DNA from: Bispira polyomma
Taxonomy: Eukaryota
Direction: 5' to 3'
Assembly (NCBI GenBank): GCA_965649765.1
Contig: OZ287749.1
Location: forward strand, 21,824,001 to 21,888,000
Length of the DNA stretch: 64,000 nt
Shown here: piece after piece, positions 1 through 11,310 of the stretch
How positions within the stretch are numbered: position 1 is the first letter of the stretch
How the letters are laid out: each line of letters opens with the position of its first letter
The notes under the pieces: generated by a model
What the model was told of the DNA's origin: nothing
Database searches by the model: none
Seen by the model: only the letters and a program-made list of their open reading frames with translations
Made by a program: the position numbers and the translations under genes

Positions 1-414
1 ATTGCTATTTGAGATGGTGTTTGTGCGTGGAACATATTTAAAGTCATTAGTAATATTGGCTCAAGTCTTTATAAACGTATACATAACAAGGGCATTGAAT
101 TTCGATGAAATATCCATCAAATACATTTCACAATGGTACTTTGGTAACTTATATTTTGACCAACTATAGTAATTACTATTTTGTGGTTTGCATATAGGAT
201 GGAAATATTAAAAAAAACTGCAAAGTAAAAGTAATTGATATATTAATTTCATGCTTTCCTAGACATATTTATAGAAGGGTATTTAGGACACATGGCAAAA
301 AAATTTATATAAATAGAACTCAAATTATCCAGGGAAAATTCTATTTCACCAGGGTGAAATACAATATTTTATTTATGGCTACCTGTCGAACAGTGTAGTC
401 TGTTTAAATACATA

Positions 415-649
415 CTTGTGTTCAAAGCTCCGTTTCCTCATCCTGACCAAATAGAAAAATCAGCAGGTGCTGGTTTACTGTCACGGTTACTGTTGAATGG
501 AACAAACTCCCACATATCACAGGATTAAATCACTGGTTTCAGAAGCCATCTCAAAACTTACCTTTTCAGAATGGCCACTCCGCTCTGCTTGCACCTGAAA
601 AATGTTTTTAATGAGTGAGTCGCCCCATACTTACCGAGATGTTTAGCAT
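415..649 (+). mobile_element. Degenerate L2/CR1-like LINE 3' fragment (left flank of the YR element)
   Basis: Reads as ...WNKLP...FRSHLKTYLFRMA (tggaacaaactccca / ctcaaaacttaccttttcag), the typical L2 ORF2 C-terminus, similar to other copies in the window. Confidence 0.5.
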
Positions 650-835
650 CAGTCTCTCAAAATAAGTTAAGTTAATTGATATCAGTCCAATATAAGTTTG
701 GTTGGCCATGAAGTTAATGGATGCTGGTAAAAATAGTGATGCTGTTTGGAGATATTTTATTTACAATTCCTTTTGGGAATAATTTGGCAACTGTACATAA
801 AATTTTTAAATTTAATTTTTTTTTAAAATATGCCA
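650..835 (-). repeat. Split direct repeat B2 (3' terminus of YR element)
   Basis: Near-identical to 1557-1740 (cagtctctcaaaataagttaag...aaatatgcca). Confidence 0.95.
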
Positions 836-1110
836 CTGTGGCGTATAAAATGTTACTCGTAATATTTAATAGAGCCATACATAACAAGCTCTCAATTAAC
901 GTATACATTTAATGTTACCCATTTGTATTTACGTATATAAGCATTATAGTTTTATAGAAACATAACAGTTTCTTAAAATTTGTATATACAATATAGTTAT
1001 CTAGTCTTTAAGACTTTTCATTTTCATTCTCTATTGTTATAAAACCAGTACAGGTTTTTTCTCTGCTTTATGAGTTATCATGTTCAAGGCATTATATTCT
1101 ATTCAGTTTT

Positions 1111-1320
1111 TATGGGATAAAATTTTTTAAAGAAAAGAATTCGAACTTTTGCCAGAAGGAACCCGAACGCACGGCACCAATTTGCCCACAGAAGTCCCAC
1201 CTCTCAGCGCCCCTAATCCATCCTGGCACCCCAGTGGTTTGCTCAGGAGAGAGATTAAGAAGGTGGGACCTCCACGTGGTCTGTAGGTTCCGCTAGCAAA
1301 ATTCCGAATTTTTCCCATTA
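1111..1320 (-). other. Predicted long stem-loop (structured RNA) in the A2-B2 spacer
   Basis: Nested helices on minus strand: UUUGCUAG/CUGGCAAA, GGAACC/GGUUCC, GGAGGUCCCACCU/AGGUGGGACUUCU, UAAUCU/GGAUUA, UCCUG/CAGGA; GC-rich island in AT-rich flanks. Confidence 0.6.
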
Positions 1321-1365
1321 AGTAAGAAAGTTTTTGTATTCAATCAAAAAGGGAGGAGGGTGTGG

Positions 1366-1556
1366 ATTAAAAAATCTGGCCTTGTTCACTCTTCGCCATA
1401 CAATTTAATAATGACCATGAGGCCCCCACAAACGTGGTGCCCTACTTTTGACCCCAGTAACCAGACAATGCTTGTCGTTGCTGGGGTTCAAATACCATAT
1501 TCTCTTGAATTTTGGGGACTGAGGTGTCATGCCACTATTGTCGGCAGTGACTATCA
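1366..1556 (-). repeat. Split direct repeat A2
   Basis: 191 bp, about 3 mismatches by eye to 6959-7149; directly abuts B1. Confidence 0.95.
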
Positions 1557-1740
1557 CAGTCTCTCAAAATAAGTTAAGTTAATTGATATCATTCCAATAT
1601 AAGTTTGGTTGGCCATGAAGTTAATGGATACTGGTAAAAATAGTGATGCTGTTTGGAGATATTTTATTTACAATTCCTTTTGGGAATAATTTGGCAACTG
1701 TACATAAAATTTTTAATTAAATTTTTTTTAAAATATGCCA
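1557..1740 (-). repeat. Split direct repeat B1
   Basis: Copy of 650-835, begins just after the YR stop codon (1750). Confidence 0.95.
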
Positions 1741-1749
1741 AAACCCAAA

Positions 1750-2693
1750 TTAAAGAGAAAAAGGGATTATAGCAGCAAAAGTATCTGGAATAATGGAAGC
1801 TGCTTTGGAAGTGGATTCTAGATATGTCCAAACAGCATCCGATTTCCAGCAATCATGTTTTTGTATATTTTGTAATTTGACATTGCTATTGAAGGCCAGG
1901 GATGCCCCTGACCTTCTAAAACAGTGAAAAGAATGTCCCACTGGTGATATGTTGTTCTGCTGTAAAATGTTTTTCAGAGTTGACCTTAATTTTGTTTCAG
2001 TTAGACATTTGCCTCCTGTCTGTGGATCTGCCAACAGTGGGGCATGTGCTGGCAATGGATACTTTTGAAATAATGTCCTTGCTGCTATAACTGGGCACAA
2101 CCAGGGATTTTTGAGTTTATGTAGCTGTATAATATCAGATTGTGTCCTTGTTTGATTGTTTTTGACCATTTTAGTACTAGATGTAACCCTGGAGGTGCAA
2201 AAGTGATATCTGATCTTGTGATATGTCTAGTCATATCATCAAAAGTTTTTGCTGATTGTGGTGTAAGATTTGATATTCGAAGAAAACCAAAGTAAGCAAA
2301 CAAGAAAGCGGTACGGTACAATTCTGGAAAATATAATAGCTGACATTGCTTTGAGATTGTGTGTAACTGCTGAAGGTCAAAAATACCTTTTGGTTTTGGT
2401 ATGTAATGAGAATTTATCATTACCGATTTTTGGTAGGATGCTATTCTTGCATCATATAACTGTGAATCATCACTTCCAATTTGTTTTGCAAAATTTCTAA
2501 TTGCTGCTAAGTAATTGTTCACTACTTTATATGATAAATTATTCTGTTGAAGAAATTCCATAAATGCCAGAATTGTACCAAAACTAAAAGTTGGTTGAAT
2601 GTCATAGTATATGACAAAAGCCAAGAATAGTTTTACTTGACCTTCATACATTCTAATAGTCCTTGGTCTGTGACTTGTTTTAATTTTCTTCAT
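1750..2693 (-). pseudogene. Tyrosine recombinase (frameshifted near 2170)
   Basis: ORFs 2085-2693 (AYFGFLRISNL, catalytic R) and 1750-2169 (LCPV; HCFRRSGAS = HxxR; CWKSDAVWTY, catalytic Y) join across a frameshift at LKWSKTIK/NNQTR. Confidence 0.92.
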
Positions 2694-2779
2694 GGCTGCT
2701 GTCAGTAGTGGTCGTATGTTGTCTTTTGTGTCTGAAAAATATTAAATGTCATTGTCAAGTATAAATAGTTCAATTGGAA

Positions 2780-4333
2780 CTCTGTACATGTTAAATTTGG
2801 TACTTATTAAAGTCTTTATTTCCTGTGTGTGAATGCCTAGATCATGCCATCGTGACAGCGTATCTGCAATAATATTCTTTTTTCCTGCCAAATTTTTATG
2901 TCAATGTCATTATGTGCACAAATTAGCCATAAATTTCTAAGGCATGTACTTAGAAAAGAGTCTCTGGTTTTTGACGACCGTACTGCATACACCACAGCAG
3001 CATTATCCGAATGAATTTTTATAGTTTTATTTTAGTTTTATGTCGTTGCCCATAATTTAAATGCAATCAGTAAACTTAGCATTTCGAATTGAACAATGCT
3101 GTGTTGCTGTGTGAGCCACATTGGGAGTACTGCTGAAAAAACGTCCATTCCGGATATACCCCCTATTCCTTGTAGGCATGCATCTACTTGTAGAAACCTT
3201 GTTTCTGACTTCTCGCTATCAATGTATTTAGTTTTTCCATTAAAATATCTTATAAATTTCACAAACCAGTTCAAATCTTTGTGAAATTCTTCATTTAAAG
3301 TAATAATATTTGTACTCGTCGAGTCTCTTAATAGTTGTAGCATACGATTCATAAATATCCGTGCCGGTTTTACACATCTATGAATGTATAATAATTTCCC
3401 TAATAAAGACTGGTATTTATTCTTTTTTACTTTCTTGAGTTCTTGAAATGATATACACACGTCATAAATACTTTGTAACTTTTCATCGTCTATGCTTAAC
3501 GTTTCATTATCGATATCAATCGTTATACCCATGCAGGTCACTTTCCTACTGGGTGGTACTAGTTTTTTCTTGTTTATGGGCAGACCTAGTTCTTGTAGCA
3601 GATCTTGTAGAAATTTATAAACTATGGTCGCTTTTTGCTCAGTTTCTACGATAATAAAATCGTCGATATAGTTAAACACTGTAAAATAGTGTTGTTTCAT
3701 TATATGTGTAATTGATTTCGATACTCTTACAAAGACTGCAGTGCCATGGGTTAGGCCAAAAGTCCAAGCTTGATCGACATAATAATTATCTTTCCATTTA
3801 TATCCCAATTTTGAGCTATCTAGCGGGTCTACTCGTAGATTCCTGAACACATGCGCGATATCGACCTTTGCTAATAGTGCACTGTCACCTATTGTCTGTA
3901 TCTGATCTACTATCTGGTCAATTGTGGGCAGTTTAAGTTGAAAGTCAATGTCATCATATCTATCTTTACTAGTGCAATCATTCACAGAAAAACCCAAAGG
4001 ATGTGCTAGATTTAAAATGAATCTTCTTTGATTATCATCTTTTGGTCTCATTAATAAAGGTGAACAATGGAATTCATCGTGTAGTTTACCTGTAATTGGT
4101 CCTATTATTGTATTCTTTTCTTTTTCTATAGTAAAATATTTATCAATATATTGCGGGTATTCATTTGCCGAAAAATGATTATCAATATGTTTTGTATCTA
4201 ATCGTTGGCGATCATACAATGAGATATGAAATCTGAATTCCAAATATTGTAATAACAGTTGATCATGATATTGTCTCAAGTGATTTCTCCAATTCTTGAT
4301 GTTCAGTCCGCTTTTTATTGGTATACGTGCCAT
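2780..4333 (-). pseudogene. DIRS/Ngaro-type reverse transcriptase-RNase H (disrupted near 3038)
   Basis: ORF 3038-4333 has AKVDIAHVFRNL, TFGL, YIDDF, MGITID and RNase H VDACLQGIGG; past the stop the sequence continues as IHSDNAAVV...KNIIADTLSR. Confidence 0.92.
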
Positions 4334-4439
4334 TTTATAATTTTCCCTATTATTTTTCTTATAATATCACAGATTTGCACTAGTTTTTCATAGTTTAAAC
4401 TTAAAATCCAAGTTGCTGTCAGTAATAAAACCATAAGTC

Positions 4440-5624
4440 CTATTTTCTTTTGTCTTTTGTCTTTCTCTTAAGTTTGTTGTCAAGTCTTTTTTTATCTGTA
4501 TTCTCCAAGTTTTTACTATTATATTCTAATAATGTTGTTGTCACTTCAGAAGCTTTGTCACTCAGTGATTCTGGTATGTTTGTTTTAATTTCTGTATGTC
4601 TGTCCTTTTGTCTCTCAATCATTACTTTTTCTGTTTTGTCTATTGTAATTTTTTGATTTCTGTCATTTTTTATCGACTGTTTTTCTATATGTTGACTTCC
4701 CTGGTCATTGTTATTCAATGTTATCTCATTAGTCTGACTACTAATAAGCTTATCTATAATTGTCTGGTAATAGTATGTATTACCAATATTAGTTCTGGTA
4801 TGTGTCTTATTTTTTGTTTGTCGTTTGTGTTTGGATTTATTTTTGTTCTTTCTAGTCCCAGTCTGTCTTTTGACCTTGACCTCTGTTGACATATAATATG
4901 GCCATATATCATGCACATTATAACAGGCCTCCTGTAATATTAGGCTGCCCTGATCTGACATTTGTATATATACACCTGAATACTGGAAGTCTATTTTGTC
5001 GACTCCATAATAAGCAATTTTACCATTAATCAGTACATTACCAATATATAAATCTAGAATTTTGTCTGTTCCTGCTTGTTTAGCATTTGACACTGTTGAC
5101 TATATATATCAAAAGCTTTAAACTGTTCACTGTCTTTGCTGTTATCTCTGAAGTGAGTGTCCATATGTTTAGACTGCACCATTTCTATATCACCTTTTTT
5201 ATATTCAATATCATTTTCAGTTTTTATGTGTACGTCATGATCAATCACTTTCATAATGCATTCATTTTCCCACTTTTTTTTCATTTATCACAATGTCTCC
5301 ATTTTGATTTTCTTTATTTTTTAAATTTAACTTTAGTGCATTATGATCATTCATTTTCATAATGTACTCATTTTTTTGAAAATTATTAATTTTTTGATTC
5401 CTCCAATATATATTACTAGGTGCACTGTCGATATCTTCTCCAACTTGCTCACACAATTTCACATAACTTTTTAATTTTTGACTTCTGTTCTGTTGTGGTA
5501 TATGCAGGCCGTCTCCTGTCCTACTTGGTTGTTGATTGGTTGCCATTCGGTTTTCCGTGTAGCTTAAAGCATTTTGTCTCCGGATGTGTATTTTTCTTGC
5601 GATTACCTCGAAAACAAGTAGCAC
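4440..5624 (-). pseudogene. Frameshifted N-terminal extension of ORF2 or accessory ORF, unknown function
   Basis: Three overlapping same-strand ORFs (5262-5624, 5054-5284, 4440-5093) bridge gag and RT; the first overlaps the gag 3' end; K/N/Q-rich with one hydrophobic block. Confidence 0.55.
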
Positions 5625-6822
5625 AGATGTGCTTGAAGATGGTCATCTGATTCTCATGATCTCCCTCCCTATTACACTGATTCTTTTGGTAATGCTTACA
5701 CGGAATGAGCGATTTGGTAGTCGACATGATGTTTGTTGTATTCGAAGTAGAACCTGCTGACATCAGCGCATGTGAATATGATAGTCTATTAAGCGTCCAT
5801 TTTGTTTCGTCCATCCACGTTAATCTGCCTTCTTCTACGTCATGCATATTATTTGCATAGGCCCCTCTCACGACTTGCCACAAAATGTTGGCTGCATCAC
5901 TCAGCGTGTCCCCTAGTTGTCTTAACAAGGCTAACGCAATACTTGGTTGTTTTACTTCCAAAATGTTTTTAATTTGTCCTGATGAAAATTGGGCTATTGT
6001 TAATTCGTCATATGAAACTCTTTTCTTAGAAATTCCAGAAAGACAACCTTCGTTTGGCCACCTGAATATTGGGTCAGTTGTGCATGTATCAGCCACATGA
6101 AATCGTCCTGATTTGCGTTTTAATAACGACTTACCCTGTAAGATGTTCTGTGCAGCCAGTGTCTCGTATTGCTGAAGACAGGCACTAACTTCATTCTGTA
6201 ACATGGCAGAATTCCTCAACACATCGGCTGTAGGTGTAATGTCATGTCCAGTTGTTGCGTTTTGATGGTCATACGTGACCCGTGATTCCATTCTGTCGGC
6301 GTGCATCGTCATTAACCTTGGATTTTCTTCCGGAAAACCAGTATATGGTGTATCTGGCATCCTGCCCTGCTGAATGCTAGGACGTGGTGCTGGAGTAGGA
6401 CGAGCTGGGAGCAAAAACTGCTGTAACGGATCATTATGTGGCTGTAATATATTGACTGGAGCACTTACTGTAGTAGTCAGTCGAGTCGGTGTAACCGTCG
6501 TTTTTCCCTTGGACTTTAGTTGTTCCACGTCTGCCTGTAAAGCCTCTACTGATTTCATAATTGTGGTCATCATTTCTTGTTGACGCTGACACATATCACG
6601 GAACACTGAATTTACTGTACTCACTTCGGTTGTTAGAGACAATATTTCCGCACCTGTTTCTAATTCTTCCTCTGACACTTCACTTGTATAACATGCTTCT
6701 GTCAGTATAGCTCTTTTGCACCTTGTACCCACAGGTCGGTTATGCTGGCACTTACAGCGAAAACAGTCAAACACCATTCCTATTTGTGTTGATTTCTTTT
6801 TCTCTTTTCCCATAATTTTCAC
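5521..6822 (-). CDS. Gag-like ORF1 of the YR retrotransposon
   Basis: Intact 433-aa ORF (first ATG at 6813); N-terminal CFRCKCQH...C cluster, coiled-coil-like segment, C-terminal CKHY...C...H...HICATC...H....C zinc-finger cluster typical of DIRS/Ngaro gag. Confidence 0.85.
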   Translation of the reverse strand: MKIMGKEKKKSTQIGMVFDCFRCKCQHNRPVGTRCKRAILTEACYTSEVSEEELETGAEILSLTTEVSTVNSVFRDMCQRQQEMMTTIMKSVEALQADVEQLKSKGKTTVTPTRLTTTVSAPVNILQPHNDPLQQFLLPARPTPAPRPSIQQGRMPDTPYTGFPEENPRLMTMHADRMESRVTYDHQNATTGHDITPTADVLRNSAMLQNEVSACLQQYETLAAQNILQGKSLLKRKSGRFHVADTCTTDPIFRWPNEGCLSGISKKRVSYDELTIAQFSSGQIKNILEVKQPSIALALLRQLGDTLSDAANILWQVVRGAYANNMHDVEEGRLTWMDETKWTLNRLSYSHALMSAGSTSNTTNIMSTTKSLIPCKHYQKNQCNREGDHENQMTIFKHICATCFRGNRKKNTHPETKCFKLHGKPNGNQSTTK

Positions 6823-6958
6823 ACCATATGATAAAGAACACTATACTGTATATTTTAAAACATTAAAAAGCCTTTAAAACATATACAACACTAAAAACTT
6901 GATCACTAAAATTTCTAAAATCTTTCTGTTTCATAAAATTCAATATGGCGGCAGGCGA

Positions 6959-7149
6959 ATTAAAAAATCTTGCCTTATTCACTCTTCGCCATACAATTTA
7001 ATAATGACCATGAGGCCCCCACAAACGTGGTGCCCTACTTTTGACCCCAGTAACCAGACAATGCTTGTCGTTGCTGGGGTTCAAATACCATATTCTCTTG
7101 AATTTTGGGGACTGAGGTGTCATGCCACTATTGTCGGCAGTGACTGTCA
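6959..7149 (-). repeat. Split direct repeat A1 (5' terminus of YR element)
   Basis: Copy of 1366-1556. Confidence 0.95.
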
Positions 7150-8384
7150 AAATCTGTGACTTCGTCAGCTGATGTACTTTCTGTTAGCGAACGAATATGT
7201 GACCAATTTATCAGTCACTGATTGCTTGTTTCAAGGGTACCAAAATGTTTTTGTTAATTAATTTAAAATTAATCAGGGTAACTTGTGTAGGTGATATAAC
7301 TGACACACAAGTGATTTAATCACTACAAATTAATTGGACTAGTGTCAGTGACAGCAAATACTTTTTAAAAAGATCTAAAAAATACAAACAGTATGTGTTT
7401 TTTTTCTCTGTGCAATATTTCATTGGAAACTAGTGACTAACAAGGTTTTTTCATTATTTTGAGAAAGAAAAATCGCGACATATTCTGTGGATATATTGGC
7501 ATCAAAAAATCATATACTGGTAAGTCAAAAATTTTGCCTAAGCTTAAAACATACACAAATACACAATAAATGGCGGTTGTTTGAGTTTACCAAAGTAGTC
7601 GCATTTTCTGTAGTACATGTACTACTTTTTAGCAAGAGTAGATTTATACAAAGTGGCAGTTGAATTCATTCAAGATGGAGTAATTTTACAACAGGCACAA
7701 CACATGATTAAAAGAAGTCTATTTTCCTACAATTTATAATTGTCCAGCAGCTGGAGTGTATAAAATATACATAAAGCCTCCATAGAGCGAATGCTCACAG
7801 GACCAAGCTTTACAATGCAAGTGGTTCAAAAAGTGCTAATGTACAAGAGAAAAAAAGAGTGGTTATCAATAAAATATTCCGATAAATTCGCCATATTCTC
7901 GAAAAAAGTTAAGCTCAGACGTAACTCAAATGATCGCTATGTGGAAGTCCTTGGAACATAGAATAAACCTATAGTTGTGACCATTTATTTTAATAGGGCT
8001 TACAGCACCAAATTCAAATATGCAGTCAGATTTTACACAACTTCAGCCCAGCCAGAGATACACCTGGACTTTAAAAATTTGAGTCAGAGTTGAGCGTGAG
8101 ATCTTTTAAAAAATTACCATCTGTTAGAATCTGCTAAATGGGATCATATAGCAGCCAATGAAAACATGTTATGAGCTTTTCTATTTTTACCAGAAGATGG
8201 ATGGGATAATCTATAATATTATTAATGTTATTGGAGGCCTGCCTTCAACACCGTATAGCTACATTATTGGGGATTTAAATATGACAAAAAAATCCACCTC
8301 ATATTAGATATGGTATTATTTTTAGTCTGCTGAAGAGGTCATGTTTTTTTTTGTGGCTGTCCCCAGGATAACACAACAACTACT

Positions 8385-8505
8385 AAGGGGAACATGGTAT
8401 CCTAGTGGTTGGAAGTGTTAGCTTCAAAATCAACCGGCCTCTCGCCGATGTGGGTTTTACTCGCAATCTGACCTAAGCTGTTGATAGCAATGAAACCCAC
8501 TAAAA
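8385..8505 (+). mobile_element. Diverged tRNA-derived SINE fragment
   Basis: A-box-like tcctagtgg and head caaaatcaaccggcctctcgcc similar to the SINE head at 15295. Confidence 0.45.
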
Positions 8506-8561
8506 CCAATTTACCTGAAAGTTGGAGGAGTGATGATTCCAATAAATTTAGTGGTGGGTCA

Positions 8562-8710
8562 GGGGCCATATTCCAAAAACATTCTTACAATACAATTCTT
8601 GAAATTTTCTTAGTTTCAGCCGATCAGTTTCTTTGAAGCAATATATTCAGCCAATCAAATTGATTGAGACAAATATTTAAGAATAAGAATATTTGTGAAT
8701 ACCAGCCTAG
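8562..8710. mobile_element. Small MITE (PIF/Harbinger-like) inside a Helentron-like repeat
   Basis: Imperfect TIRs ggccatattccaaaaacattctta / taagaatatttgtgaataccagcc; followed at 8757-8805 by the ggaggtatgtgctc..gagtgc..ctagtt end motif. Confidence 0.45.
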
Positions 8711-8899
8711 GGTAGAAGATAGTGTTCCAGAATTTTATATTTTTACTTTTTGCACTGTGTTACCTTGGTGGAGGTATGTGCTCAACTGAGTGCTAGTCTA
8801 GTTGTTTATGTATTTCAAGATATTTAATAATTGCATGTTTTCTACTTTGAAATGTGCAAAATACAGTTTGATGTACCCAAGAACAATCTTCCCCCCTGA

Positions 8900-9030
8900 A
8901 GAGAGAGGCTTGAGGATGACCATTTATCAACATCCACAAAGTTCTTTAACTGGGAATAGGACCACCATTTTATGTGGTCATCCGAGCCACTATGTGTCTA
9001 CCTGTACCTGGTCGCCACAGTCTGGAATAA
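8900..9030 (-). mobile_element. SINE fragment (same family as 24150-24449)
   Basis: Shares ggcttgaggatga...tttatcaacatcc...ctttaac...tggt.atccgagccact with 24225-24330. Confidence 0.55.
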
Positions 9031-11060: not shown

Positions 11061-11310
11061 GGCTTGTATTTTCTCGAAAGATCTCAAGCTCAACTCAGTC
11101 TTAAGCTTAAAAGGTATGGTCCTAATATTATCTCTGACCAGAGTGGAGTTACTTAAAATATATGACTGCATATTTTAATTTGGCATTAAAAACCCTGTTA
11201 AAATTAATGGTCACAAGTATAGGTTTATTTAATTTAAAACAATTTTACCATAGCCTATATTTTAGTTTGAGTCTAAGTTCGATCTTAAGTTTCTCCGAAG
11301 AATACGGGGC
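11061..11310. mobile_element. MITE (PIF/Harbinger-like)
   Basis: Long imperfect TIRs ggcttgtatttt..gatctcaagctcaactcag / ctaagttcgatcttaagtttctccgaagaatacggggc. Confidence 0.55.

Follow-up and report, generated by a model that had tools for sequence, protein, structure and literature searches.

The whole stretch of DNA analyzed here (64,000 nt of Bispira polyomma, hereafter the window) carries on its minus strand a Ngaro-like tyrosine recombinase (YR) retrotransposon of the order DIRS, as identified by its repeat layout and genes. Read along that strand, the element begins at its 5′ end with repeat A1 (6959..7155) and continues with a gag-like ORF of 439 aa (5521..6840), which has no Pfam match and corresponds in position to homologous ORFs of relatives, an RT/RNase H region (2860..4366; RVT_1 E 2e-9; 41% identical to an open relative) that is broken by a stop near position 3040, and a YR gene (1750..2741) that is frameshifted into two ORFs and homologous to the open 333-aa YRs of relatives. 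These genes are followed by repeat B1 (1557..1740), which contains AATAAA and is 97% identical to B2, by repeat A2 (1366..1556), which is 97% identical to A1, by a 530-bp spacer, and by repeat B2 (650..835), the 3′ end of the element. Both the split direct repeats (A1-ORFs-B1-A2-B2) and the combination of gag-like, RT/RH, and YR genes correspond to the Ngaro layout A1-gag-RT/RH-YR-B1-A2-B2, as given in the available text of PMC9210276, PMC8547959, and PMC3783388. A methyltransferase domain, which DIRS and PAT elements have, was not found in a Pfam scan of five window ORFs, whose pol is broken, and the Phage_int_SAM match of the window YR scores under Pfam’s curated cut-off. This copy of the element looks inactive. 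Such YR elements are abundant in the genome (1.04 Gb in 75 contigs), where one YR query returned 13,409 first-look candidates, 125 of which were scored. Elsewhere in the window, positions 7962-8117 and 11066-11229 contain inverted arms (73 and 50 nt) that are separated by ~3 kb and may be the termini of a DNA transposon.

A preliminary description of this locus had reported a GC-rich, structured block within an AT-rich spacer of ~530 bp between A2 and B2. The distance from the A2 end (1366) to the B2 start (835) is indeed 530 bp, and the GC content is 49-57% at 1130-1269 versus 20-31% at 640-1129; that of A2 itself likewise reaches 47-51%. On the minus strand, which is the sense strand of the element, positions 1111-1320 fold at −87.1 kcal/mol (z −5.95), and on the plus strand the same segment folds at −67.6 kcal/mol (z −4.39), with 0 of 200 shuffles as good in either case. 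For the core (1152-1296), the z-scores are −3.60 on the minus strand and −2.34 on the plus strand (3/200 shuffles). The fold therefore beats shuffled sequences on both strands and is stronger in sense than in antisense, but since the plus strand also folds well, the strand is not settled by one copy alone. The 13-bp stem and the side segment of the preliminary description were recovered as the pairing of 1273-1261 with 1202-1190 and as a hairpin at 1186-1173, respectively. Its extent, in turn, needed correction: the full rod (1111..1320, minus strand) does fold in this copy, but the conserved module spans 1145..1298 only, and the arms beyond it are a lineage-specific stem extension. Likewise, the module is single-copy within this element, with one model match in the 64-kb window, but it is common across the genome.

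Conservation and covariation of the spacer module

The conserved structured RNA module (1145..1298, minus strand), as delimited by a sequence and structure model (R2) and by covariation, consists of a basal stem, a three-way junction, a long helix, an internal loop, and an apical domain. Model R2 was built from a 28-copy alignment with no window-family sequence in its seed; it scores the window module at 96.3 bits (E 5e-26) and matched 77 times across 81 sources. We tested 33 named pairs in the 28 copies, all from other families (923 cells), and found 92% of the cells paired, compared with 40-53% in slid 33-pair controls, and both-side changes in 11 of the 33 pairs (62 cells), where the structure used for these counts was derived from the same sequences and the relatedness of the copies inflates such scores. 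The shuffle control for the number of pairs was not clearly exceeded (101/500). In a set of 47 representatives below 85% identity, from which two short or reverse rows had been removed, the cells comprised 1072 Watson-Crick, 275 G-U, 73 A-C, and 74 other combinations, and several G-U pairs are nearly invariant among the 28 copies (27/28 for one pair; 25 G-U and 3 A-U for another). The excess of G-U pairs and their invariance favor a fold of the sense strand, most simply as RNA, with the reservation that this strand was also the one used to select the pairs. Together with the compensatory changes, the ratio of 275 sense-strand G-U to 73 A-C cells supports the earlier proposal that selection acts on an RNA and not on a DNA palindrome.

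Conservation is distributed unevenly over the fold. The most widely retained parts are the lower three-way junction, its 4-bp side hairpin (1173..1186; 96% of cells paired, with G-U/A-U and G-C/G-U exchange), and the helix above, the side hairpin and junction being present in the most distant variants. The two strands of the long helix (1261..1273 on the 5′ side, 1190..1202 on the 3′ side) show changes on both sides across families. The internal-loop strand (1203..1219) bears the family motif GAATARRRGCTCTGRGA, from which the window copy differs at two places. The apical domain (1222..1247) is identical in several distant families, and in others its loop is variable, shrunken, or substituted or the domain as a whole is reduced; as the upper domain varies so widely, more than one function is possible. 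In the 47-representative alignment, the 30 strongest covarying pairs of columns include no pseudoknot, and a CCUAAAC/GUUUAGG pseudoknot present in one module type is not general across the alignment. The module matches no Rfam family at gathering score: a scan of window positions 1-9000 gave two chance-level matches (best 23 bits versus a cut-off of 102), and a scan of 12 other loci gave nothing on the module. Likenesses to hammerhead, pistol, and hatchet ribozymes, SRP, telomerase CR4/5, and xrRNA found no support in Rfam.

A DNA search of the genome with the block gave 41 matches, in many of which only window positions 1299-1149 align (80-90%) while the repeats do not, and in which the YR is 38-45% identical. 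The 17-nt motif GAATARRRGCTCTGRGA has 209 exact genome matches, the apical 26-nt motif has 62 matches at ≤2 mismatches (25 exact), and the motif of a second module type has 96; each reversed-pattern control gave 0. Position and fold are retained across lineages whose YR is 31-46% identical to that of the window: among loci with both repeats mapped, the module lies 3′ of A2, at a distance of 118-158 nt in most families and of 336-343 nt in a single family, in elements whose A2-to-B2 distance is 0.5-1.3 kb. We give almost no credence to the idea that this is a DNA-level palindrome, a MITE, or an unrelated insertion. The plus strand too folds beyond shuffles, and 7 of 20 motif-anchored loci have no recognized A or B repeat nearby, as such a feature might; however, the module occupies a constant position across many YR clades, its core is conserved with family-specific ends, it shows compensatory changes and invariant sense-strand G-U pairs, and its copies share no terminal repeats. 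Taken together, the module is a real structured RNA family in Ngaro-like elements, apparently undescribed and known from one genome. Its motif has no match in viral contigs, metagenome contigs, or prokaryote genomes, and protein-led scans for other species gave no loci. Looser patterns matched viral contigs 9 and 35 times and were rejected as chance, the best reaching 19.9 bits over ~80 nt versus 36-161 bits for real modules. YR relatives at 43-63% occur in other assemblies (264 proteins, counted at the protein level), and the range of the module need not be narrow.

Several variant arrangements were also seen. The module type of L143 and L144 has 12 of its 13 matches within ~0.4 Mb of a contig end, and the 8 kb upstream of these two loci are devoid of element ORFs. 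L197 and L198 contain two modules in one spacer, one of them full and the other shortened at its top. In L011 (1421-1690), a member of the window family is rearranged such that part of A directly abuts the apical domain of the module, the whole being inserted in a YR fragment.

Copies without the module and exchange between lineages

We next considered a sample of 70 of the 125 scored YR matches (the 30 best and 40 of the others), for which the YR and not the module served as anchor. Forty of these copies have an A2 unit, with the module present in 29 and absent in 11. Of the remaining 30 copies, which lack A2, about 25 terminate cleanly at B1 (L086-L204), some with an open YR. Ten of the 11 module-less copies belong to a single clade in which a common 218-bp deletion has removed the entire module, three of these sampled copies sharing a flank and hence representing one duplicated insertion. 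The deletion junction has 15 matches in the genome, and ten deletion copies retrieved have ten different 3′ flanks and are 97.9-99.6% alike. They are monophyletic (100/100) in a ladder-shaped tree with nested forks, which implies that copies lacking the module themselves served as sources of new ones; the clade comprises at least 10 insertions with different flanks and several successive sources. In the ten copies, B1 and B2 are 97.8-100% identical, and the 947-aa pol is open in seven, the YR in eight, and all three ORFs in three. On the stem of the clade, pN/pS is 0.12 for pol and 0.07 for YR, low values that may predate the deletion, which may fall anywhere on the 0.05-long stem; within the clade it is 0.48 for pol (23 sites) and 0.03 for YR (10 sites). 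Compared with the module-bearing relative L142, the clade shows no large sequence gain. A second module-less lineage, which includes the eleventh copy (L207), has four copies with YR and both B repeats; these have different flanks, are 92-100% alike, and keep only a short basal-stem remnant. Model R2 found no match in 16 loci of the two lineages, and both are shallow tip clades. The different flanks argue against these copies being DNA-level duplications. The module is not needed on a copy’s own DNA for that copy to spread.

The module also has a history that differs from that of the YR gene. Between the window and L061/L062, the modules are 91% identical, although the YRs are 42% identical and belong to different clades; with L074, of the window’s own clade, module and YR are 76% and 75% identical. 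The first of these contrasts points to exchange of segments between lineages, by which the module would have moved from one to another, on the basis of pairwise identities and a quick YR tree whose rows L072 and L149 are unreliable.

The A2-B2 unit and possible roles of the module

The repeats suggest how the module might be expressed. Repeat A has CCAAT ~100 nt from its end in 36 of 38 copies and CCATWTT, which we take to be a YY1-like motif, ~50 nt from its end in 34 of 38; B1 contains AATAAA in 34 of 38. From these motifs, we infer that A is a Pol II promoter and that B holds a poly(A) site, so that the module would be absent from an mRNA ending at B1 and present on read-through and A2-driven RNA. 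With promoter-like motifs in A and a poly(A) signal in B, A2-B2 may be an RNA gene of its own. In the window lineage, A lacks CCAAT and CCATATT occurs only just after A1, so A2 may lack a full promoter there. Solo and tandem A-module-B units are present in the genome, the tandem ones in three loci (L182, L184, and L163). Free A2-B2 units are known as the SIRE of VIPER (PMC6681497) and as solo AB repeats of Cafeteria Ngaros (PMC8547959); in the available text, SIRE has ~30 bp of its own sequence between A and B, whereas the units described here carry a 150-nt structured RNA. No recurrent complement to the module of ≥9 bp was found in 20 elements (800 nt upstream and 1000 nt downstream), and none of the 119 module matches is a gag-to-spacer spliced copy.

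What the module does has to be weighed against its being conserved, portable, and losable. This is how a gene product behaves, and we therefore rank first, albeit tentatively, a protein-binding helper RNA on a predicted A2-to-B2 transcript that would be shared in trans and hence unneeded on a copy’s own DNA. The A2-spacer-B2 segment would form a second, non-coding unit of ~0.6-1.5 kb, transcribed from A2 and ending in B2. Its three-way junction would dock the element’s Gag/RT complex, or a host factor that this complex needs (either partner is a guess), and the docked RNA would assist in the initiation or assembly of reverse transcription; copies without a module would obtain the RNA from the many module-bearing copies and from solo A-module-B units. 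The lack of a recurrent complement in the regions searched points to an RNA that binds protein and not to one that pairs as a primer or guide. Yet a purely shared product should be easily lost, and 29 of 40 copies keep the module, which a benefit in cis explains at least as well. Because it accounts for retention more easily, a non-essential booster acting in cis on read-through genomic RNA, the only RNA able to rebuild the ends, whose packaging, export, or stability it would favor, is a possibility nearly as likely as the helper RNA. Retroviral psi and CTE elements act in this way, in packaging and export in cis. If the AATAAA of B1 is used, the spacer would be unique to read-through RNA, and a cis benefit would fit both the long conservation and the confinement of module loss to shallow tip clades; one retrovirus, according to the available text of PMC11379458, also gained by recombination a transport element that lies between its env gene and its 3′ LTR. 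The deletion clade fits such a booster poorly, being young, largely intact, and derived from several sources with no large compensating gain, and an export signal at this place would miss any mRNA ending at B1. LTR elements use a host tRNA for reverse transcription, and a bolder form of the helper-RNA reading, which we consider rather unlikely, would make these elements two-part genomes, in which A1-B1 supplies proteins and A2-B2 a structured RNA needed by the RT in trans as a tRNA stand-in, which lineages would trade and which cheaters without the RNA would exploit.

Other roles appear less probable still. The module could act in trans as a decoy or small-RNA precursor against host defense (RNAi or dsRNA sensors), by analogy with adenovirus VA RNA, which appears similar in its terminal stem, three-way junction, and apical stem; a host target would account for portability and for free-riding lineages. 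We regard this as improbable, as it offers little cis benefit to account for retention, the alignment has no consistent Pol III box or terminator across families, and Rfam scans gave no miRNA family at threshold. Invariant junction and loop bases and invariant G-U pairs would also suit a new self-cleaving ribozyme that processes read-through RNA, but with no Rfam match at E 5-10, no pseudoknot among the top covarying columns, and an upper half that is substituted or reduced in several families, such an activity seems very improbable. The main idea of the preliminary description was a cis-acting module by which the element primes itself, jumps between templates, or is packaged; as an essential signal, this is more doubtful again. 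In its favor, the module has a fixed place after A2, like a primer site by a repeat, and how YR elements are primed is an open question (available text of PMC7192593). However, two module-less lineages kept inserting, no conserved complement was found nearby in 20 elements, and it is a C-rich tract (1346..1365), not the module, that abuts A2 and is retained in module-less copies. An essential cis role of the module is thus largely refuted, and the preliminary description, right on the structure, was probably wrong on this function. The C-rich tract, divergent in the window and conserved in other families, is the better candidate for an essential cis signal, its possible identities being primer site, antisense polypurine tract, and splice acceptor; it occurs in most families (window 1365-1346; L062-L208), usually ending in ACCACAG.

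Related arrangements are known from other systems. Retron msr, DRT ncRNAs, telomerase CR4/5, and hepadnaviral epsilon are, like the module, structured RNAs tied to an RT, with a similar three-way junction and short hairpin among them. They belong to another RT class, however; no template or primer segment was found in the module, and RT binding would be an analogy. Epsilon is required in cis, whereas the module is not. Retroviral CTE/RTE and psi likewise form structured rods in 3′ non-coding sequence, ahead of the last repeat, and can be gained by recombination (available text of PMC11379458); unlike them, the module has no Rfam sequence match and was lost without visible replacement, and a role in export or packaging would again be by analogy. 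Within YR retrotransposons, the ICR of DIRS-1 is also non-coding but complementary to the element’s ends and essential, whereas the module is self-paired and dispensable in cis; a 3′ priming hairpin has been proposed for DIRS-1, no primer has been determined, and the start of YR reverse transcription is an open question in the available text of PMC7192593. The Ngaro elements cited above share the layout, and in the present ones A2 and B2 lie 0.5-1.3 kb apart with a conserved structured RNA between them; the available text of PMC9210276, PMC8547959, and PMC3783388 does not mention a structured spacer RNA. Nor did the literature searched, in part broadly, yield a description of such a module (including the available text of PMC7192593, PMC9210276, PMC8547959, PMC6681497, PMC13465315, PMC3783388, and PMC11379458), in agreement with the preliminary description; the spacer could be mentioned in the first papers of Goodwin and Poulter or in reports of Repbase. 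The module therefore appears to be an undescribed RNA family with strong covariation inside YR retrotransposons, and near-identical lineages with and without it, as well as lineages that swapped it, provide natural controls. A trans-acting module would make it an RNA gene on a eukaryotic retrotransposon, and a cis-acting one a first candidate for a packaging or export signal in the YR retrotransposon group.

The sequence around the module contains further recurrent features. At the B1/A2 junction (window ~1562-1515), most loci have GACTG/TG and an inverted CAGTC ~40 nt into A, which enclose a nested hairpin; the loop of this hairpin (TTTAGGGG in most families) is similar to the apical loop of one module type. 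Across families, the spacers (L061-L209) contain repeated TTTATG motifs 3′ of the module and one or two GGCTAGTCC motifs shortly 5′ of B2.
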